From an uncultured Pseudomonadota bacterium (GTDB taxonomy: Bacteria; Oederibacteriota; Muellerivitia; Muellerivitales; Muellerivitaceae), in the NCBI GenBank assembly GCA_963843375.1, contig CAWJKT010000010.1, forward strand, positions 64,001 to 128,000: 64,000 bases of DNA, read 5' to 3'. The position numbers and the translations under genes are program-made. Shown one piece after another: positions 6,216-41,466 of the stretch (the first letter of the stretch is position 1; each line of letters begins with the position of its first letter). Under the pieces are notes generated by a model. It searched no databases. It had not been told where the DNA came from and was given only the letters and a program-made list of their open reading frames with translations.

Positions 6216-7427
6216 TTGGCCGTCATGGGCCCGGGCCTAATCGTCATGCAGGCCGACACGGAAGCGGGCAGTATCACCACGGCGGCGGTGGCGGGAGCCC
6301 AATATGGCTATTTATTGGTGGGGATGCTTCTCGCTTTGGCGATCCCCCTTTATGTGGTTCAGGAAATGACCGCCCGCCTAGGTTCCGTCACCGGAAAGGG
6401 CCATGCCTATCTCATTCGGAAAAAATATGGAATGGGGTGGGCCTGGGTATCCCTTTCCATTCTGTTTATCTGCAATATCGCCGCCCTGGTTACTGAGTTC
6501 GCAGGGATCATGAGCGCGGCCCGGATCGTCCATGTCCCGCCCTTTGTATCGGTTGCGGTTTCCGCGACTCTCCTTTTATTCGTGGTCATGAGCGGTTCCT
6601 ACCGGAAAGCCGAATATATCGCGCTGGGATTCTGCCTGGCCGATCTTCTTTTTATCCCGGCGGCATTTTTAGCCCATCCGGACTGGGGAGAGGTTACCCA
6701 GGAAGTTTTTTCCGTTCCTACACAAGCTCTGACTCGTGATTTCGTGCTGGTGATCATCGGACTGATCGGGGCGGTCATCATGCCCTGGATGATTTATTAC
6801 CAACAAAGCGCCGTGGTGGACAAGAAGTTGACTGAAAAAGACCTGCTTTTTGAACGATGGGACACAGGCATTGGGGCGGTCGTGACCGAACTGGTCATGG
6901 CTTTCATCGTCATTTCCACTGGGGCTACCCTTTATACCCACCATCTTTCCATCGATGACGCGGCTCAAGCCGCAACCGCCCTCATTCCTTTGGCTGGAAA
7001 ATACGCGGGAACCCTTTTTTCAGTGGGCCTGATCAGCGCGGCTTTCCTGGGGGCTTTTGTAGTGGCGGTTTCCACCGCTTGGGCCTTTGGTGAGACATTC
7101 GAATGGCCCCACAGCCTCAATAATCGCCCTCCCCAGGCTAAAAGATTTTATGCTCTTTATGCGGCGGGGGTGGTTTTAGCGGCGGCGATCGTGCTGATTC
7201 CGAACATTCCCCTAGTGACCATTACGGTCTTGGTGGAGGCGGGGAACGCCCTCTTATTGCCTATCGTTCTGATTTTCCTTTTGCTTTTGACAAATGACAA
7301 AGAATTATTGGGCGAGCATGTCAATAATTGGAAATCCAACCTACTTGCCATTGCCACAGGTGTCGCTATCATTTTATTGGGGCTCCTAACGGTGGTTATG
7401 ACGATTTTTCCGGATTGGAAACCCTGA
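6216..7427 (+). CDS. NRAMP-family divalent metal transporter (NRMT-like; true start probably further upstream)
   Basis: GPGLIVMQADTEAGSITT, QEMTARLG, GAVIMPWM; about 11 hydrophobic segments; lacks the canonical DPGN motif. Confidence 0.85.
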   Translation: MAVMGPGLIVMQADTEAGSITTAAVAGAQYGYLLVGMLLALAIPLYVVQEMTARLGSVTGKGHAYLIRKKYGMGWAWVSLSILFICNIAALVTEFAGIMSAARIVHVPPFVSVAVSATLLLFVVMSGSYRKAEYIALGFCLADLLFIPAAFLAHPDWGEVTQEVFSVPTQALTRDFVLVIIGLIGAVIMPWMIYYQQSAVVDKKLTEKDLLFERWDTGIGAVVTELVMAFIVISTGATLYTHHLSIDDAAQAATALIPLAGKYAGTLFSVGLISAAFLGAFVVAVSTAWAFGETFEWPHSLNNRPPQAKRFYALYAAGVVLAAAIVLIPNIPLVTITVLVEAGNALLLPIVLIFLLLLTNDKELLGEHVNNWKSNLLAIATGVAIILLGLLTVVMTIFPDWKP

Positions 7428-7563
7428 TTCTTTTTTTGAGAAATCCAAATGCATTTGAATCGCTCCATGGATTTTTCTTTCTGAATGTCAGTGGGGAGGT
7501 AAAGCCAGCCGGAAATCTCTCTTTTTTCCCTAATGTGGTTTCCTTTCATCGAAAAGCGCAAAT

Positions 7564-7577
7564 ATGATCCAGATCAT
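7564..7577 (+). promoter_or_regulatory. Crp/Fnr-type box ATGA-tccaga-TCAT, promoter of the putative ncRNA
   Basis: TATAAG at 7600 (29.5 nt from centre); predicted transcription start about 7612. Confidence 0.75.
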
Positions 7578-7611
7578 GTTTATTGTCCGATGGAAGTTGT
7601 ATAAGTAAATT

Positions 7612-8022
7612 TGTAGAAAGTGTTCCAAGGTAAAGCACCCCAAGGGTGTGGCGGGGACTGAGGTCCCAAACCGAAAAAGAGCACTGCCGTCGAAAGCTGG
7701 AGGAACTGGTAAGGATTCCGGTTTTAAGCGCCTTATAGGCTGCTACGGGGACTGAGGTCCCAAACCTTCAAGGAACCCGGCCTGGCGAAGCCAGTGAGTT
7801 ATATCGGAATATTTAAAACGGTTGTCATGCCGTTGTTGTTGAAGCCCGAAGTGGGGCTTTTCAAAGTATTTGTTGGAGGTATGTCGGTACAATCGTCGGA
7901 AAGGTTCACCGGTTGCGTTTCAATGACGCGGGGCAAAGGCCCAAAACTAACAAAGAACCTTGCTGAAGATGTTGCTGATGGTCGTGAAAGCCCCGGGACA
8001 CAGGGTCCCGGGGCTTTTTTAT
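7612..8022 (+). ncRNA. Putative ~410-nt structured non-coding RNA with repeated three-way-junction modules
   Basis: Own promoter box and intrinsic terminator, no credible ORF, dense complementary segments, internal 21-nt repeat. Confidence 0.65.
7652..7766 (+). repeat. Two exact 21-nt direct repeats CGGGGACTGAGGTCCCAAACC (7652-7672, 7746-7766); degenerate third copy 7929-7947
   Basis: Read directly; each contains hairpin GGGAC-tgag-GTCCC; third copy is CGGGGC-aaag-GCCC-AAAAC. Confidence 0.9.
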
Positions 8023-8024
8023 TT
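7987..8024 (+). terminator. Rho-independent terminator
   Basis: AAAGCCCCGGGAC-acagg-GTCCCGGGGCTTT followed by a T-run. Confidence 0.9.
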
Positions 8025-8069
8025 GGTGGAAAGGGTTTTTGAGACTTTTTTACTGTTATCGGACTCAAT

Positions 8070-8083
8070 GTGATCTTGGTCAT
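8070..8083. promoter_or_regulatory. Crp/Fnr-type box GTGA-tcttgg-TCAT (variant)
   Basis: Upstream of Ric paralogue 2; GAAAAT at 8106 (29.5 nt), same hexamer as at paralogue 1. Confidence 0.65.
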
Positions 8084-8134
8084 GTCGCTCATAAAAAATG
8101 AGAGGGAAAATTAAATTGGGGGAGATGAATAATT

Positions 8135-8914
8135 ATGAAAATAATTCCATCCCAGACCGTTGGTCTTATTGCGGTGAATCTGAAAGAGTCCATCCCGGTA
8201 TTTGAGAAATATAAAATCAATTACTACAATCAGGGAAGCCGCAGCTTGAAAGATGCCTGTTATTTGGCCGGGGTTTCGTTGGAACAGGTTTCCTTGGAAT
8301 TGGAGACTTTGGTTTCAACTTCTGGCGAATGGTACCTCGATAAAAAAGACAGGCGTAACGAGCCCATGGTGGCGGTAATGGATCATAACGTTAAGACCCA
8401 CCATCACTACATTCGTAAACAGTTGGACCGGATTGAAAAAATGCTGGAAACCCTGATGAATCCCACCCGTCCTCCGGTTCCGGTTGTCTCCCAAATCCGC
8501 CCCTTTTTCGATGATATGTCCCGTAATTTAAAAATCCATTTGCGCCGGGAAGAAGAGGTTGTTTTCTCCTATTTGTTGGAGGTGGAAATGTCCATGGAGA
8601 CAGGGAGGACTCTTCCGCTGACCTTCAAGGGGTATAACGCCATCACGCATCCCTTTCGTATGCTTCAGGATGACCATGGGATGATGGATAACGAGTGGAT
8701 GAAAATCGAGGAATTGACCCATGGGTTTACTGCTTCCGACGATGCCGATTCGACTCTCAAAGAACTCTACCAGGCCTTCCGGGAAATGGAAAAGGACAAC
8801 CGCAAACATTTGCATTTGGAAAACAACGTTTTGTTTCATAGGGCCATTCAATTAGGTCTTTTAAGTAATGGAGAAAAAAATGGGAACCACGTCCAAGAAA
8901 CGCCCCATCTTTAA
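8135..8914 (+). CDS. Ric/YtfE/ScdA-like di-iron protein, paralogue 2
   Basis: Clearly similar to 1844..2578; HHHY, HLRREEEVVF, DDH, HLHLENNVLF. Confidence 0.85.
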   Translation: MKIIPSQTVGLIAVNLKESIPVFEKYKINYYNQGSRSLKDACYLAGVSLEQVSLELETLVSTSGEWYLDKKDRRNEPMVAVMDHNVKTHHHYIRKQLDRIEKMLETLMNPTRPPVPVVSQIRPFFDDMSRNLKIHLRREEEVVFSYLLEVEMSMETGRTLPLTFKGYNAITHPFRMLQDDHGMMDNEWMKIEELTHGFTASDDADSTLKELYQAFREMEKDNRKHLHLENNVLFHRAIQLGLLSNGEKNGNHVQETPHL

Positions 8915-9587
8915 GAACAGGGAAGAAGCGGCCATGCTTCTGGCTCGGAGGCTGTTGCCTTATCGGGGGTTGAAGCCCCTGGTCTTGGGGGTACCGCGGG
9001 GCGGTGTTCCCATGGCAAAGATCATATCGGAGAAACTTCTGGGGGATTTGGACGTGGTTTTGGTTCATAAGCTTCAGGCTCCGGGAAATCCCGAATATGC
9101 TATCGGAGCCATATCGGAGGGTGGGACACTCTATCGGCCCCCCTATCCTCAACACCAGTGGATTCCAAAAGAATATCTTGACCGAGAAATCAATTGTGAG
9201 CTTCACGCCTTAAAGCAAAGGCGAAAACTTTACACACCCCATCATTTAGCCCAGAAAGCCGCCAACCGGATCGTTATTGTCGTGGATGATGGCATTGCCA
9301 CCGGATCCACCTTGCTTGCGGCTATGGGGGAATTGGATAGCCAAAAACCGGCCAAGGTTGTGGTGGCGGCGGCTGTTGCCCCTCCTGAGGCGGTTGAAAG
9401 GTTAAGAAAAGAAGCGGACGAAGTATTTATTTTGTCTATATGCCCCGACTTTTTGAAAATTAGCGATTTTTTTAAAGATTTTACCGAGGTGCCCGACACT
9501 GAAGTGGTTCGGATATTGGAGAATTCTTCTGCTTCCAAGCCAGGAATATCGAGGGATAACGCCCCTCTCAGAGGGAGGATGCGATGA
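8880..9587 (+). CDS. Phosphoribosyltransferase-family protein 1
   Basis: FKNREEAA, LGVPRGGVP, VIVVDDGIATGST; SD GGAG favours ATG 8880 over 8868. Confidence 0.85.
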   Translation: MGTTSKKRPIFKNREEAAMLLARRLLPYRGLKPLVLGVPRGGVPMAKIISEKLLGDLDVVLVHKLQAPGNPEYAIGAISEGGTLYRPPYPQHQWIPKEYLDREINCELHALKQRRKLYTPHHLAQKAANRIVIVVDDGIATGSTLLAAMGELDSQKPAKVVVAAAVAPPEAVERLRKEADEVFILSICPDFLKISDFFKDFTEVPDTEVVRILENSSASKPGISRDNAPLRGRMR

Positions 9588-10255
9588 GCGAGCGTTACGC
9601 CTGGGAAAAGCCATTTTTCAAAAATCGTAATGAAGCGGCCGAACTTTTGTCCGGAAGGTTGGCCGACCACAAAGGGCAAAATCCCTTGGTGTTGGCCATT
9701 CCTCGTGGTGCGGTGCCGATGGGTCGGATCATTGCGGATGATTTGGGCGGGGAATTGGACATTGTTCTAGTTCATAAGGTTGGTTCGCCCAACAATCCCG
9801 AATTAGCCTTAGGAGCGGTCGGGGAAAACGGTGAATTTTACGAGGCCCCTTTTGCGCGATCCTTGGGTTTTTCAGAAGAAACGCTTCAAAAAGAAATCCA
9901 TATTCAAACCGAAGCCTTAAAACAAAAACGAAAGCTTTATTTGTCTGATCGCCCCCTCTACAACGCGGAAGGACGAGTTGTTATTTTGCTGGATGACGGG
10001 ATTGCCACGGCTTCCACAATAATGGCCGGAATCCGTGACCTGCGTCGGCAAGGGCCCTTGAAGGTTGTGGTGGCCGCGCCTGTGGCCCCTCCCGAGGCGG
10101 TTAATATCATCCGGCAGGAAGCCGATGAGGTTGTGATATTGACCGTCCAAACCGATTTTGCGGTGATAAGTGAATTTTTCGAGGACTTCCGGCAGGTTAG
10201 TGACGAAGAGGTAAAACGGTGTCTTGAAAACACAGCGACGTTCCCTGGAAAATAA
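9584..10255 (+). CDS. Phosphoribosyltransferase-family protein 2
   Basis: FKNRNEAA, LAIPRGAVP, ILLDDGIATAST; ATGA overlap with the upstream paralogue. Confidence 0.85.
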   Translation: MSERYAWEKPFFKNRNEAAELLSGRLADHKGQNPLVLAIPRGAVPMGRIIADDLGGELDIVLVHKVGSPNNPELALGAVGENGEFYEAPFARSLGFSEETLQKEIHIQTEALKQKRKLYLSDRPLYNAEGRVVILLDDGIATASTIMAGIRDLRRQGPLKVVVAAPVAPPEAVNIIRQEADEVVILTVQTDFAVISEFFEDFRQVSDEEVKRCLENTATFPGK

Positions 10256-11478: not shown

Positions 11479-12591
11479 TTATGCCCTAATTGCAACCATT
11501 TCGGCTGGAATGTATGAACAAAAAGGATCGGCTCCCATTATATCCCCGGTCAGGGCATAAGCTCTGGCTCTGGACCCTCCGCAAAGACGACGGTATTCAC
11601 ATTTTCCGCACTTCCCATTTAGGGAGTCGGTATCCCGCAATTTTTGAAAGAGCGGGCTTTCCCGATAAATTCCGTCCAACGGCTGGTCCTTCACGTTGCC
11701 TGCCGAAAGGGGTAGAAAACCGCTGGGACAAACATCCCCTTTATGAGATATAAAAACAAAGCCCCGGCCATCACCCACGCCCCGCGAGGTTCTTTGAAGG
11801 ACCGGGTCAGGGCGGAGGGTTAAGGCTTCCGGTAGCTCATCGGGTGTTATGCCATAACTCTGGAGGATCACCCGGCGGAAATGGTGGGCTTCGGTGGTTT
11901 TGACATCGAACCATCCCTGCTTAAGAATGTCATAAAGCTGCTTCAATACTTTTTCTGTCTCGGGGGCAGTTAAGGTTTGGTTCTTTTGGGCTCTTCCGGT
12001 TGGCACTAAAAAAAAGACCGACCAAAGGTCGATGGAAAATCGCCGGATGAGCTGGGCTATTTCCCAAACTTGGAACTTGTTATGCCGGCCGATCGTGGTG
12101 TTGATCTGAAGGTGCATTCCTAATTCCCGGATTGTTTGGGACGCCTCAAGGACCCGGTCAAAGGTGCCGGGGATACCGCGGAAAAGATCGTGTGTGACTG
12201 CGTTGGCACCATCCAGAGAAAGGGAAATCCGTTGAAGACCTTCATCCCGTAATTCCTCCAGGCGTTCCCTAGTTAACAAGGGGGTCACAGAAGGAGCCAA
12301 GGCAAAGTTCATCTTTCGTTGCGTGCATTCCCTGACCAGAAGGGTCAAATCCGGCCGTTTCAAAGGGTCCCCCCCTGTCATTACAAAAAGGGGGACACCC
12401 CAGTCCGCCAGTTGGTGGATCAAATCTAATGCTTGCCTTGTGTCAAGTTCATCGGGATAAATTTGGGATTGGGCCTCGGCCCGGCAATGGACGCAGGCCA
12501 AATCGCAAGCCCTTGTTGTTTCCCAAATGGCGATATAGGGTCGGTCGGCATGTCGGGCTGTTGGTTTTTGGGGCGCAGAGATTTTTTCCAT
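11479..12591 (-). CDS. Radical SAM/SPASM protein (TIGR04053 / AhbD-NirJ-like, heme-synthesis associated)
   Basis: WETTRACDLACVHCRA, TGGDPL, PSGFLP, GKCGKCEYRRLCGGSRARAYA...DPFC. Confidence 0.85.
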   Translation of the reverse strand: MEKISAPQKPTARHADRPYIAIWETTRACDLACVHCRAEAQSQIYPDELDTRQALDLIHQLADWGVPLFVMTGGDPLKRPDLTLLVRECTQRKMNFALAPSVTPLLTRERLEELRDEGLQRISLSLDGANAVTHDLFRGIPGTFDRVLEASQTIRELGMHLQINTTIGRHNKFQVWEIAQLIRRFSIDLWSVFFLVPTGRAQKNQTLTAPETEKVLKQLYDILKQGWFDVKTTEAHHFRRVILQSYGITPDELPEALTLRPDPVLQRTSRGVGDGRGFVFISHKGDVCPSGFLPLSAGNVKDQPLDGIYRESPLFQKLRDTDSLNGKCGKCEYRRLCGGSRARAYALTGDIMGADPFCSYIPAEMVAIRA

Positions 12592-14292: not shown

Positions 14293-15345
14293 TTATGATA
14301 TTAATGGCTTTTGGGCTGTAGCTTCTCTCCACAATTGGGCCAAGGCGCTTCCAAAACTTTTTCTTACGACTAAGGGATAAGGATTGCCGGGTGGCAATTG
14401 ACGCATGAGCCTTCGGTGAGTCTCGCCAAGGTTGTGATAGGGCATACCGGGAAAAAGATGATGCGTAGCGTGGAACCTAAGACCCACAGGAGCCCAAAGC
14501 GGGGTGGAATAAGGATTGCCAGGAATGTCGATGGAATCAAGGAATTGCTCCGAAAAACTCATTTCGTGGTTTGGAGGATTACGGTAACAATGAGCTACCA
14601 GAGTGCGTAACCCGTTAGTGAAAAGAATAAAAACCGCCGTCAGATACCAAAGAATTAGAACCTTCCAAGGCAGGATTCTCAGAGTCATCAGGGTTATCCC
14701 GGTAGTGCCATAGGCGAAAGTCAGAAATTCCTGGACCCACCAAATCCGTTTTTCTTTTTTATCCGGCAGGGCCCTTTTGAAACCACCGCCAACCGCCAAG
14801 GAAGAAGCCAATTCCCAAAGGGGTTTCCTCAAAGACTGGATGATATAGGAGAGGGGAGTGGCGATTAGGAATCGCAGAAGAAACACTGCGGGGGCCAGGA
14901 ACATGGTTAGCAAAAAGGTCAATATCCGGAATGGGTTTTCCAGGGCGAAGTCAAAATACTCGTGATCGTCCTTTGTCCCGTAAAGCTTTTGTTTGTGATG
15001 ATCAATATGCACTCCCATGTAAAGCATGGAGGGAACCATGAGGGGAAAGCCGCACAGCAGATTCCAAACTACGTGGAATATTCGAAAAGTTCCTTTTTTT
15101 AAGTGAGTTAGTTCGTGCACGAAAATAACCGCCCGGTAGAGAGCAAAGCCAGCCACAAAAAATGCGCCTATTTGAAACAATGAAAAATTATTGGATTTTA
15201 TCGCCAGGATAAAAGCTGTCCATCCCAAGGCAACGTTGAATAAGAAATCAATCCAATATATCCAAGGATTGGGGTTGAAAAGATCTTGAGTGATTCGCTT
15301 GGCATCGGCCATGGGGAAATCAATGGTTGGAGTTTTAAGAACCAT
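14293..15345 (-). CDS. Membrane fatty-acid desaturase-family protein
   Basis: His boxes HELTH, HIDHH, HATHH; SD AGGAG before ATG 15345. Confidence 0.85.
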   Translation of the reverse strand: MVLKTPTIDFPMADAKRITQDLFNPNPWIYWIDFLFNVALGWTAFILAIKSNNFSLFQIGAFFVAGFALYRAVIFVHELTHLKKGTFRIFHVVWNLLCGFPLMVPSMLYMGVHIDHHKQKLYGTKDDHEYFDFALENPFRILTFLLTMFLAPAVFLLRFLIATPLSYIIQSLRKPLWELASSLAVGGGFKRALPDKKEKRIWWVQEFLTFAYGTTGITLMTLRILPWKVLILWYLTAVFILFTNGLRTLVAHCYRNPPNHEMSFSEQFLDSIDIPGNPYSTPLWAPVGLRFHATHHLFPGMPYHNLGETHRRLMRQLPPGNPYPLVVRKSFGSALAQLWREATAQKPLIS

Positions 15346-15384
15346 GGGTGCTCCTGGCGGCACAATTTAAAACAAAGGTTCTTA

Positions 15385-20937: not shown

Positions 20938-21723
20938 TCATGAAACCTTGCGCCTGTTGAAGTTTTTAGACATTCGGATGGTATTTTGGATAATTCGATT
21001 ACGGCCCTTTTCCTTTGCCTCGTAAAGGGCCTGGTCTGCCAGGGCGATCAGTTGGCGGTAGTTTAAGCCCGAACTCTCGTAACTTGTCACGACACCTAAG
21101 CTGACTGTCAATTGGACCCGGTGATTATTTTGCACAAAAAGGTGCCTTTGTGTGGCTTTGCGGATCCGTTCGGCGACGATTCGCCCCTGAACCTGATCAC
21201 AATTGGGAAGGATGCAAAGAAATTCTTCCCCGCCGTAGCGGGCCACTGTGTCCCCTTCCCGAAGACATCGTCGAAAAATCATAGCAAAATGTTTTAAGAC
21301 GTAATCTCCGAAAGGATGACCATAAGTGTCATTGATTCTTTTGAAGTGATCCAGGTCCAGCATGAAGCAGGAGATAGGAAGGCGATTGGTGAGGTGGCGC
21401 CTAAACTCGATTTTGAAGGTGTCGTGAAGATAGCGGTGATTGCCCAAGCCGGTTAAGGGGTCAGTCAATACTTCTTTGGATAATACCGCGTCTTTTCGAA
21501 TGAGATGGTCCTCGCTTCGTCCGATGAAAAAACCAAAAATGGCGAAAACCAAGCATGTGTTAATGAGCATGTAAAGATAGAAATAATAATGGAGCGTCCA
21601 TTCTTGTGCGAGGAAAGTCGCAAAGGGAGTAGCGGAAAATAAAAATCTTGGAATAAATATTCCAAGTGGGGCGCCTGTACCGAGCAATAATCCAAAGAGG
21701 GTGAATAAATAGGACTTTTTCAT
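20938..21723 (-). CDS. Membrane-anchored diguanylate cyclase
   Basis: Two TM helices; TDPLTGLGN, DLDHFKRINDTYGH, RxxD (REGD) then RYGGEEF. Confidence 0.9.
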   Translation of the reverse strand: MKKSYLFTLFGLLLGTGAPLGIFIPRFLFSATPFATFLAQEWTLHYYFYLYMLINTCLVFAIFGFFIGRSEDHLIRKDAVLSKEVLTDPLTGLGNHRYLHDTFKIEFRRHLTNRLPISCFMLDLDHFKRINDTYGHPFGDYVLKHFAMIFRRCLREGDTVARYGGEEFLCILPNCDQVQGRIVAERIRKATQRHLFVQNNHRVQLTVSLGVVTSYESSGLNYRQLIALADQALYEAKEKGRNRIIQNTIRMSKNFNRRKVS

Positions 21724-22085: not shown

Positions 22086-22607
22086 TCATGATCTTTGCCC
22101 CCCTTCGGGTTGGGTATCTTTATCAAAAGAGTCGACGGAAAAAGTGAGCAAGCGGCATAAAGCGGATTTTTCCTCGATGCCGATTACCCTTTCTAATTCC
22201 GGATAAAGAATCCGCTCTTCCCGAAGGGAATGGTGTTCAATGAACTTCTTGAAGTGGGCTTCATCATCCAAAAGAGAAATGACATCCTTGACGGCAGCCA
22301 CGAAATCCAATCGAGAAAGCCTTAATTTGATGCGGTTCAACCATTCATCGATTTTTTGGTGTTCCTGGATGAAAGTGTCGGGGTCCCCTCCGCGAATGGG
22401 GGCGACTCTTTTACTGTAAAGAGGCAAAAGGATTTCCTCCTCCTCTTTTAAATGACATCGGAGAGCTTCTTCATAGGTTTTAAGCAGACGAGTTGCGTTT
22501 GATCTTGTCGGTTTCAAAAGGGCCACTTGATGATGAAAGAACAACTCATCCAATTCCCGGTGGATATTACTTAAGTCCAATAGGCTTTTAGGAGGGGAAG
22601 GGATCAT
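22086..22607 (-). CDS. Hemerythrin-domain protein
   Basis: H...HLKEEEEILLP...EH...HHSLREERILYP. Confidence 0.85.
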   Translation of the reverse strand: MIPSPPKSLLDLSNIHRELDELFFHHQVALLKPTRSNATRLLKTYEEALRCHLKEEEEILLPLYSKRVAPIRGGDPDTFIQEHQKIDEWLNRIKLRLSRLDFVAAVKDVISLLDDEAHFKKFIEHHSLREERILYPELERVIGIEEKSALCRLLTFSVDSFDKDTQPEGGQRS

Positions 22608-33322: not shown

Positions 33323-33823
33323 ATGCCGAACTTGGAACAAAGAATGACCAAGCACCCATTTTTAAGAAGCATCCCCGGCGATAACATTCGTCTTTTGGCG
33401 GAAGATACAACGCCGATGATATTCAAGCCGGGTGAAATGGTTTTTCGCCGGGGGATGAATGCCAATCATCTTTTCCTGGTGGAAAAGGGAATCGTTCTAG
33501 TGGGTTTGCTAAAATCCGAATCTGGAGGGCCCTTGACCATTGCGACGGTTACAAAAGGGGGCAGTTTGGGTTGGTCCTGGGCCTTTGAGCCTTATCGCTG
33601 GAAGTTTGATGCAAAGGCCAAGACTCGGGTGGAGGTTCTGGCGTTGGAAGGAAAACCCCTTCTCGCCAAGATGGGGAGGTATCCGCTTTTAGGATATGAA
33701 CTCATGAGTCACTTGGCGCTCTCACTATCCAAGGGTTTGGAAGCTACCCGCCACCAGTTAATCAAGCTTCATCACCGGAAGTCAAAAACCGACTTGATCT
33801 ATTTGCAGCAACCGTTATTTTAA
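33323..33823 (+). CDS. Stand-alone cyclic-nucleotide-binding-fold protein (no HTH)
   Basis: FKPGEMVFRRG..ANHLFLVEKG, LGWSWAFEPYRWKFDAKA; SD AAGGAG. Confidence 0.8.
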   Translation: MPNLEQRMTKHPFLRSIPGDNIRLLAEDTTPMIFKPGEMVFRRGMNANHLFLVEKGIVLVGLLKSESGGPLTIATVTKGGSLGWSWAFEPYRWKFDAKAKTRVEVLALEGKPLLAKMGRYPLLGYELMSHLALSLSKGLEATRHQLIKLHHRKSKTDLIYLQQPLF

Positions 33824-37619: not shown

Positions 37620-37645
37620 CTCTCTATGACGTCGGTCATAGAGAG
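37620..37645. promoter_or_regulatory. Crp/Fnr-type box (core 37626-37639) with 11-bp arms; probable autoregulatory site
   Basis: CTCTCTATGAC-gtcg-GTCATAGAGAG; TAATTT at 37662 (+, 29.5 nt), CATATT from 37603 (-). Confidence 0.8.
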
Positions 37646-37673: not shown

Positions 37674-38333
37674 ATGAACACAAAAAGTTTTCTTTCCACA
37701 ATGGAAGTTCTGAAAAATCTGCCGGCGGATCGGTTGGCCGAGTTTGAAAAAAAGATGGTGGAGAAGAAATATCCAAAGGGTTCTTCTATTTTTCTTGAAG
37801 GCGACCCGGCGGATTATGTTTGGTTTGTAAAGGAAGGTCATGTGAAGGCCGTGATCCATTCCGCGGGAGGCAAGGACATGACTCTCTGCATGGTGGGTGC
37901 CACCAGCATGTTCGGAACCTGTTGTTGTTTTGGAGGCGGTCAATATCCATGCAACAGTATGGCCGAAACCGACACAACGGTAGTGGCTTATCCCATGAAG
38001 GAGTTCCTGGGGCTGCTGGAAAAATACCCCGCAATGTCCAAAGCAGTTGTACAGGCCCTTTCGGAAAGGTTGCGTCAATCCAAGGACATGCAGGTTTTTG
38101 AGCAGGAAAGCGTTGAAAAACGAATTCTGCATGTTTTGATCGGCTTGGTGTCGGAATTCGGAAACACGATTCCTTTAACCCGTCGGGAAATTTCCGAAAT
38201 GTGTGGAACAACCGTGGAAACCTGTATTCGCACCTTTTCCCATTTGGAAAAGGAGGGATTGGTTTCAAGTACGCGCGGAAAAATAACAGTGCGCAATGTT
38301 CGGGATCTCCTGGACCGGCAAGGGGCGTCTTAA
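37674..38333 (+). CDS. Crp/Fnr-family transcriptional regulator with a Cys-rich sensor domain
   Basis: IFLEGDPADYVWFVKEG effector domain, FGTCCCFGGGQYPC, HTH LTRREISEMCGTTVETCIRTFS. Confidence 0.9.
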   Translation: MNTKSFLSTMEVLKNLPADRLAEFEKKMVEKKYPKGSSIFLEGDPADYVWFVKEGHVKAVIHSAGGKDMTLCMVGATSMFGTCCCFGGGQYPCNSMAETDTTVVAYPMKEFLGLLEKYPAMSKAVVQALSERLRQSKDMQVFEQESVEKRILHVLIGLVSEFGNTIPLTRREISEMCGTTVETCIRTFSHLEKEGLVSSTRGKITVRNVRDLLDRQGAS

Positions 38334-41390: not shown

Positions 41391-41466
41391 GGGGGCGTAG
41401 CTCAGCTGGGAGAGCACTTCCATGGCATGGAAGGGGTCGTGGGTTCGATCCCCATCGCCTCCACCA
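41391..41466 (+). tRNA. tRNA-Ala(GGC)
   Basis: 76-nt cloverleaf; anticodon arm CTTCC-atGGCat-GGAAG; G3:U70; GTTCGAT T-loop; CCA end. Confidence 0.97.

Follow-up and report, generated by a model that had tools for sequence, protein, structure and literature searches.

The locus and its RNA gene

The subject of this study is a gene for a structured noncoding RNA (ncRNA) in the DNA of an uncultured bacterium of the candidate phylum FCPU426, a phylum of soil and peat. The DNA analysed, which I will refer to as the window, is a stretch of 64,000 nucleotides (contig CAWJKT010000010.1, positions 64,001 to 128,000 of the forward strand), and coordinates are those of the window unless another genome is named. 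The gene sits in a 700-bp gap, with the gene of an Nramp transporter (6216-7427, + strand) on its left and a gene for an iron-sulfur repair protein, RIC/ScdA (8135-8914, + strand), on its right. I hold with high confidence that 7612-8024 on the + strand specifies a free-standing structured ncRNA of about 410 nt. The parts of the gene are these:

7565-7576, + strand: palindromic Crp/Fnr-type box TGATCCAGATCA, its centre about 41-42 nt before the probable start of the RNA
7600-7605, + strand: -10-like hexamer TATAAG, 23 nt 3' of the box; the start probably lies near 7611-7613
7612-8024, + strand: the ncRNA gene, about 413 nt here and 360-416 nt in homologues, which align with it end to end
7619-7685, + strand: module 1, with helices P1 (7619-7625/7679-7685) and P2 (7629-7631/7670-7672), variable hairpin P3 (7635-7649) and conserved hairpin P4 (7654-7667, GGGAC-UGAG-GUCCC)
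7686-7712, + strand: linker GCCGUCGAAAGCUGG...CUGGUAA, conserved in the alignment of homologues
7713-7777, + strand: module 2, with P1 (7713-7719/7772-7777), P3 (7728-7743) and P4 (7748-7761); its P2 is short and variable in register
7782-7798, + strand: small conserved hairpin CUGGC-GAA-GCCAG, then UGAG; 86.7% paired among the homologues, with one pair changed on both sides
7799-7884, + strand: spacer that cannot be aligned among homologues, its length ranging from about 20 to 95 nt
7889-7970, + strand: module 3 together with its leader ACAAUCGUCGGAA, which hardly varies; helices P0 (7896-7899/7963-7966), P1 (7901-7907/7955-7961), P2 (7911-7914/7945-7948), P3 (7915-7929) and P4 (7931-7942)
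7986-8024, + strand: intrinsic terminator, a stem of 14 bp (9 GC) at 7986-8018 and then a U-run

The box, the -10 hexamer, the terminator and the helices are all present at the positions given in a preliminary description of this DNA, which was made from its letters alone. That description also drew a fourth junction, of two hairpins, at 7807-7871; the region falls in the length-variable spacer and is absent or much shorter in homologues G025, G009, G013 and M067, and the fourth junction is not conserved. A 20-mer comprising the P4 hairpin and its tail, GGGGACTGAGGTCCCAAACC, occurs at 7653 and again at 7747 in the window, where 0.01 occurrences would be expected by chance and none of 100 shuffles contained two matches.

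Homologues were sought by blastn over 61 related genomes and then with two covariance models. Ten genomes, the window's own included, carry one full-length copy each. All ten belong to a single family of FCPU426, where they represent at least eight genera and make up 10 of the 31 genomes (8 of the 17 of high quality). The RNA was found in none of 68 genomes from 22 other families, so that 10 of 99 genomes of the phylum carry it. With two new metagenome sequences added, there are 12 distinct sequences of 360-416 nt, whose pairwise identities range from 54 to 92%, and all of them are closed by a GC-rich hairpin and a U-run. A scan of 185,579 species genomes with a degenerate pattern produced 27 matches, seven of them true and all from genomes already found; the same kind of scan of JGI metagenomes produced 36, of which three were true and two were the new sequences. 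Viral contigs gave no match with two patterns. The scan pattern is unable to match copies as divergent as that of G013, and absence elsewhere therefore means not found with this pattern.

Open reading frames (ORFs) of 82 aa on the + strand and 97 aa on the - strand overlap the 3' half of the gene, as found mechanically, and might be taken for a protein-coding or small-peptide gene; the stretch might also be thought non-functional repeat DNA. Neither ORF matches Pfam. Their positions, frames and lengths differ across the 12 homologues, which have no ORF in common, and no frame was seen that is kept open in all 12 with substitutions biased towards synonymous ones. Moreover, substitutions in the helices are compensatory, insertions and deletions are not multiples of three, and the sequence is conserved across all those genera. 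The preliminary description saw no credible ORF here, and I find a coding gene or functionless repeat scarcely credible.

It is also conceivable that the RNA is the cis-acting leader of the downstream operon of RIC and phosphoribosyltransferase genes, since genes on the same strand begin within about 110-150 nt downstream, both in the window and in the genome of the same genus. Those genes, however, have a box and -10 of their own beyond the terminator (8071-8082). The downstream gene is a different one in every other genus and is convergent on the RNA in G004 and G010, the neighbours including, from genus to genus, MacB/FtsX, pirin, LysR, PEBP, MFS, NYN, a kinase and GH67. Because the flanking genes differ between genomes, I conclude that the RNA is not a leader, and the cis-acting reading is very improbable. 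Neither a conserved same-strand gene downstream nor a conserved expression platform, as a riboswitch or other cis leader would have, is found here.

No match to the ncRNA appeared in Rfam 15 at the gathering score, nor any common family over the modules in the 11 homologous loci; at E<=10 there were only weak, terminator-driven matches in the window and the same loci. The family is new in that it lies outside Rfam 15, and the RNA's description as an unrecognised one has held. The hairpin string was found in none of 8.4 million papers, and RNA work on FCPU426 was absent among the matches listed. The sole Rfam match at gathering score in the window is a tRNA gene at 41391-41463 (+ strand, 59.3 bits).

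The top weak Rfam match, a PyrR binding site with 25.7 bits as compared to a cut-off of 54, was rejected. The idea of a PyrR-like element arose with two adjacent genes of phosphoribosyltransferase fold, 53% identical to each other, which follow the RIC gene (8868-10255, + strand). The pair stands directly 3' of the RNA in the genome of the same genus; in G018 a homologue is found at a distance of about 3.4 kb from the RNA. A phosphoribosyltransferase gene is present in 8 of 10 RNA-bearing genomes and in 9 of 21 RNA-free ones, and so has no link to the RNA.

Conserved fold and repeated unit

Covariation was assessed on MAFFT alignments of the 12 homologues, which were not fitted to any structure, with two controls: sliding the 3' partners by 1-3 columns and shuffling (500 shuffles). 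In the 5' domain (modules 1 and 2, 52 pairs), 82.1% of the cells are paired, as compared to 30-55% with slid partners, and 23 pairs have changed on both sides, as compared to 12.6 in the shuffles, none of which reaches 23. The 3' module (24 pairs) has 94.8% of its cells paired, as compared to 33-54% when slid, and six double-change pairs against 2.5 in shuffles, again with none of the 500 reaching the observed number. The strand may be read from the pairs as well: one pair of the 3' module is GU in 11 of the 12 homologues, and since G-U pairs would read A-C on the opposite strand, the ncRNA is on the + strand.

The helices do not contribute equally. The outer helices P1 hold most of the compensatory changes, both sides having changed in five of seven pairs in module 1 and in five of six in module 2, where the helix is 91.5% paired. 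P3 covaries while its loop varies. P4 is always paired and its sequence is almost invariant: in module 1 it is 100% paired, and 11-12 of 12 homologues are identical at every pair. The corresponding figures in module 2 are 88.9% paired for P3 and 95% for P4. Weaker points are P2 of module 1, with two double changes and 69% pairing, and the 5-bp version of P2 in module 2 that was drawn from this genome, which is 36% paired and whose register is not kept. GCUG at 7696-7699 is able to pair with CGGC at 7778-7781 and so enclose module 2, but this helix is 75.6% paired with no double changes and is tentative for that reason; covariation in the 12 homologues could not separate it from an alternative local hairpin, GCCGG/CUGGU.

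Folding energy is modest evidence when taken alone. The z-score of the whole RNA is -3.7 on the + strand and -2.3 on the - strand, and the single modules 1, 2 and 3 give -1.6, -1.6 and -3.4. Folded in isolation, module 1 has a minimum-energy structure that reproduces exactly the drawn fold, and module 2 takes an alternative pairing that is not conserved. The strong support is comparative, not thermodynamic, and on the strength of the aligned sequences I take the conserved fold to be real.

The modules are, judging by their sequences, homologous copies of one unit. A covariance model made from modules 1 and 2 only (24 sequences; model R2) matches module 3 across the full model length in 9 of the 12 RNAs (E 2.5e-5 to 2.4e-3) and misses it in G018, G009 and G013, while a model made from module 3 (R1) matches module 1 in two genomes. 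The claim that the RNA consists of three covarying three-way-junction modules is borne out by this cross-detection together with the covariation. The gene originated by triplication of a unit that begins with a purine-rich leader (UCGUCGGAA-like) and continues into a three-way junction, in which the outer helix P1 and the short P2 enclose the sequence-variable hairpin P3 and the conserved hairpin P4 (GGGGAC-UGAG-GUCCC, then AAACC). The leader that opens each unit reads GUAGGAAGG, CUGGUAAGG or GUCGGAAGG. Units are about 90 nt long with their leaders and have diverged from one another; the loops are of 3-7 nt in P3 and of 4 nt in P4 (UGAG/AAAG). Outside the ncRNA gene, the module was found nowhere else in this genome.

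Two weak covariance matches, in G015:C148 (E 0.003) and G028:C64 (E 0.048), resemble coding sequence, were not confirmed by R2 with filters off, and were not counted. At 3.4 kb from its main gene, G013 has a second copy, which is partial (on the reverse strand, L097 at about 1440-1600; G013:C24:~491000-491150). It comprises one unit resembling module 3, a similar 3' tail and a terminator of its own; R1 matches it (E 2e-4) and R2 does not. It is perhaps a duplicate in decay, or else a variant with one module.

Aptamers usually show a conserved junction core amid peripheral helices that covary freely, and tandem aptamers are known, for example in glycine riboswitches. The three units might accordingly be aptamers for a small molecule or a metal ion, borne on a trans-acting RNA that senses or buffers a stress-linked metabolite, and the terminator might serve as an expression platform in some genomes. 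I consider this unlikely. There is no consistent gene downstream (the neighbours being convergent in two genomes), no riboswitch family matches in Rfam, and the range is very narrow, one bacterial family. The stretch from module 3 to the terminator varies in both length and sequence, and there is thus no conserved switching helix. Some other kind of functional RNA, such as a self-cleaving or catalytic repeat, or the RNA subunit of a ribonucleoprotein whose protein is encoded elsewhere, would account for conserved junction nucleotides in three tandem copies and for a single locus per genome. No ribozyme family matches, though, no conserved protein gene lies nearby, and the RNA was not found in viral contigs, and I regard this suggestion as quite improbable.

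Relatives of the RNA appear in RNA libraries. Metatranscriptomes had been proposed as a check on transcription, and four runs from two studies (peat and soil) do contain assembled contigs, 68-370 nt long and 80-97% like this RNA. These contigs are confined to 7630-7981, and where their ends do not match, they look like other homologues. Several of them span two or three modules, and the greatest word depth is 74. The longest contigs in these libraries are of 8-18 kb, and the relatives' RNA occurs there in short, discrete pieces. The flanks left uncovered (7400-7602 and 8009-8250) are not evidence of transcript ends, because the contigs stem from relatives whose flanks differ.

Promoter and regulon

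A box centred about 41-42 nt before the start is the class-II arrangement of activators of the Crp/Fnr family. The exact sequence TGA-N6-TCA stands at a fixed offset in 7 of the 12 homologues, 48 nt before a conserved GUAG (47 nt in one). The distance from the box to the -10 hexamer is 23 nt in this genome and also in G001, of the same genus. Homologues have TATAAG, TATCAA, TATTAA, TATAAA or TAAAAT at the same -10 position. In one genus without the exact box, three of the four promoters (L006, L008, L009, L064; 40-75 nt upstream of the RNA start) share an inverted repeat like CCCCCTAAAGGGG, followed by a sequence like TGAATCATGA, and these sequences suggest a different regulator there.

The box of the ncRNA gene is one of many in this part of the chromosome. 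Forty combinations of box and -10 lie outside long ORFs in the 4.05-Mb genome, and 18 of them, at 16 distinct sites, fall within C10:57-102 kb, the rest of the genome having 22 more. The island so defined is about 45 kb long (G000:C10:57155-101627, which is about 1-37700 of the window plus about 7 kb upstream). Its boxes are of the type ATGA-N6-TCAT and stand 22-24 nt from a -10-like hexamer; at two of them the genes served are divergent. Behind boxes in the window stand the following genes:

1844-2578 and 8135-8914: two RIC paralogues
11479-12591: radical-SAM/SPASM protein
14293-15363: fatty-acid desaturase
20938-21723: GGDEF cyclase
22086-22607: hemerythrin
33323-33823, + strand: cNMP-binding protein of 166 aa, with a Crp sensor-like domain only and no DNA-binding domain
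37674-38333, + strand: regulator of the Crp/Fnr family, with a box just upstream at 37627

A MacB-type ABC transporter and a YceI-like protein are also preceded by a box in the island. The position of the box at 37627 suggests that the Crp/Fnr regulator is autoregulated. This protein is without the N-terminal cysteine cluster of the Fnr type and has a cysteine-rich stretch, GTCCCFGGGQYPC, inside its sensor domain. The kinds of genes found behind boxes suggest that the regulon responds to damage of iron centres by oxygen or nitric oxide.

Function and relation to known RNAs

How might such an RNA work? Transcription would start from a class-II promoter dependent on the Crp/Fnr-family activator and would stop at the intrinsic terminator. 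Judging by the RNA's mates in the regulon (two RIC proteins, a diguanylate cyclase, a hemerythrin and di-iron oxygenases), the probable occasion is damage done to iron centres by oxygen or nitric oxide. The RNA would then act in trans as a multivalent binding platform, on which the three cores, each a junction plus P4, would offer three equivalent sites that titrate or assemble a partner for as long as the regulon is on. The partner would most likely be an RNA-binding protein; a small ligand is less likely. Covariation is free in P1 and P3, whereas the junction letters, P4 and the AAACC tail are invariant, and this three times over; such a pattern is to be expected of a three-dimensional site that a partner recognises, and not of a seed for pairing, and it is why I favour a trans-acting multivalent binding RNA, a decoy or a scaffold, though with a confidence that stops somewhat short of even. 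The preliminary description had likewise guessed at a multivalent, stress-induced RNA, whether a sponge for protein, a scaffold or a precursor cut into units; of the partners that such guesses would call for, neither a CsrA-type nor an Hfq-type protein was found in the six RNA-bearing genomes searched.

More tentatively, I suggest that the fold of the three junction cores may be that of a new aptamer; the RNA would then represent a new class, induced by stress and acting in trans, that captures three copies of its partner. That partner might be an RNA-binding protein, for example the single RRM protein, of a phylum without Hfq and CsrA, or it might be a small molecule or metal freed by oxygen or nitric-oxide damage. 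The RRM-domain protein is encoded once per genome, at G000:C7:103899-104108 and at a single locus in each of 22 related genomes. It is possibly a general RNA chaperone of the lineage.

The leaders invite a different explanation. A leader like AUCGUCGGAA precedes each of the three modules, with almost no variation in the copy at module 3, and the RNA could be a regulator that pairs with mRNAs through this triplicated seed, perhaps after being cut into three active units, the junction being a body for stabilisation or processing. Its own regulated promoter and terminator are as in known stress small RNAs (sRNAs), and there is a precedent in NrsZ, which is reported to have three similar modules released by processing, one of them enough for function (PMC4253122). 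Against this, Hfq was not found in the RNA-bearing genomes searched. Pairing gives no role to the junction or to P4, the most conserved of the paired elements. The loops, which in NrsZ are the seed, are here variable (P3) or of 4 nt (P4). RNA contigs that bridge modules indicate that unprocessed forms exist, although processing remains compatible with them. I consider a pairing sRNA possible, if doubtful.

A number of observations weigh against the RNA as a stress-induced, multivalent binding platform. The RNA-library contigs are assemblies from relatives, blind to ends, strand and induction, and carry-over of DNA into the libraries is possible. The exact box is missing from 5 of the 12 homologues, namely one genus (G026, G010, G021 and the metagenome sequence M064) plus G013, so that Crp/Fnr control is not universal; the box control asserted in the preliminary description stands where the box keeps its distance in seven homologues and precedes neighbouring stress-type genes, and is not seen in these five. 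An attempt to find co-occurrence of the RNA with the regulator failed, orthologues of the latter (at least 72% identity) being present irrespective of the RNA, and it follows that the regulon is older and the RNA an accessory member of it. It is also dispensable, since 9 of the 17 high-quality genomes of the family are without it. As for a partner, CsrA (PF02599) was found in none of six RNA-bearing genomes (the window's own, 80% complete, and five others, 96-99%), with the control found in three known genomes, and Hfq (PF17209) in none of the same number, with the control found in five. TROVE/Ro was not found in the window's own genome. The single RRM protein is only a lead: all 10 RNA-bearing genomes encode it, and so do 13 of the 21 that are without the RNA. 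Finally, a role as pairing seeds is equally conceivable for the unpaired leaders (AUCGUCGGAA), which are conserved and occur three times. Beside these results, the ANTAR domain (PF03861) was found in none of 31 genomes by a search that matched no known control genome either.

A close known arrangement is that of NrsZ from Pseudomonas aeruginosa (PMC4253122). NrsZ is likewise a stand-alone, regulator-activated RNA of three similar tandem modules with spacers and a terminator, belonging to a stress or nutrient regulon. Its modules, however, are simple stem-loops of about 40 nt with a conserved seed loop, in contrast to the three-way junctions of about 65-70 nt found here, whose loops are variable or of 4 nt and whose paired core is conserved; and its activation is by NtrC/RpoN, not through a Crp/Fnr box. 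The two RNAs are unrelated by sequence or Rfam family. In short, three similar tandem modules are found in both, and an identical seed exposed in each loop is not found here.

The CsrB/RsmZ sponges are the model for a multivalent decoy and resemble the present RNA in being several hundred nt long, with repeated binding units and a regulated promoter of their own. Their motifs are GGA in loops, however, whereas GGA occurs here in leaders and helix strands and not in loops; besides, their partner CsrA was not found (six genomes) and Rfam gives no match.

FnrS and other sRNAs activated by Fnr or Anr are ncRNA genes under a site of the Crp/Fnr family at about -41.5, and act by Hfq-dependent pairing with a length of about 100-200 nt. 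The present RNA shares the class-II site (in 7 of 12 homologues, the other 5 being without it), but it is about 410 nt long, is mostly structured, has repeated junction modules, comes from genomes where Hfq was not found, and has no sequence relation to them.

OLE, GOLLD, HEARO, ROOL and raiA are large structured bacterial ncRNAs, all of them in Rfam. The RNA considered here is like them long, intricate, supported by covariation and found by comparative analysis. It differs from them in having no match in Rfam 15, in its internal triplication, in a regulated promoter that can be recognised, and in a range restricted to a single family within one candidate phylum. ToxI of type III toxin-antitoxin systems is a tandem repeat array with a terminator directly before the toxin gene; here no conserved gene follows the terminator, and the units, about 90 nt long and diverged, are not near-identical short repeats. 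Targets of ANTAR proteins are two adjacent hairpins with loops of 6 nt, as against loops of 3-7 nt (P3) and 4 nt (P4) here, which are not paired hexaloops. The general kind, then, a modular ncRNA activated by a regulator, is known, and the unit is not: it is a three-way junction in triplicate whose paired core is conserved.

The reach of the finding is limited by a narrow range, 10 of 99 genomes of the phylum and one family, and by the lack of a culture, so that work on its function must be done in vitro or in a surrogate host. Nevertheless, long bacterial RNAs whose intricate fold has good covariation support are seldom found, and new biochemistry has come from several such RNAs. The present one has an unusually clear anatomy, a triplicated unit with a conserved paired core, and a readable input, a Crp/Fnr-type site shared with genes for the repair of iron centres, which together lead to concrete, testable hypotheses. 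If the cores are indeed a new aptamer, the RNA would be a regulator or buffer without a described counterpart. It provides, in any event, a handle on RNA-based regulation in FCPU426, a phylum with no cultured member, in which neither Hfq nor CsrA was found in the six RNA-bearing genomes.

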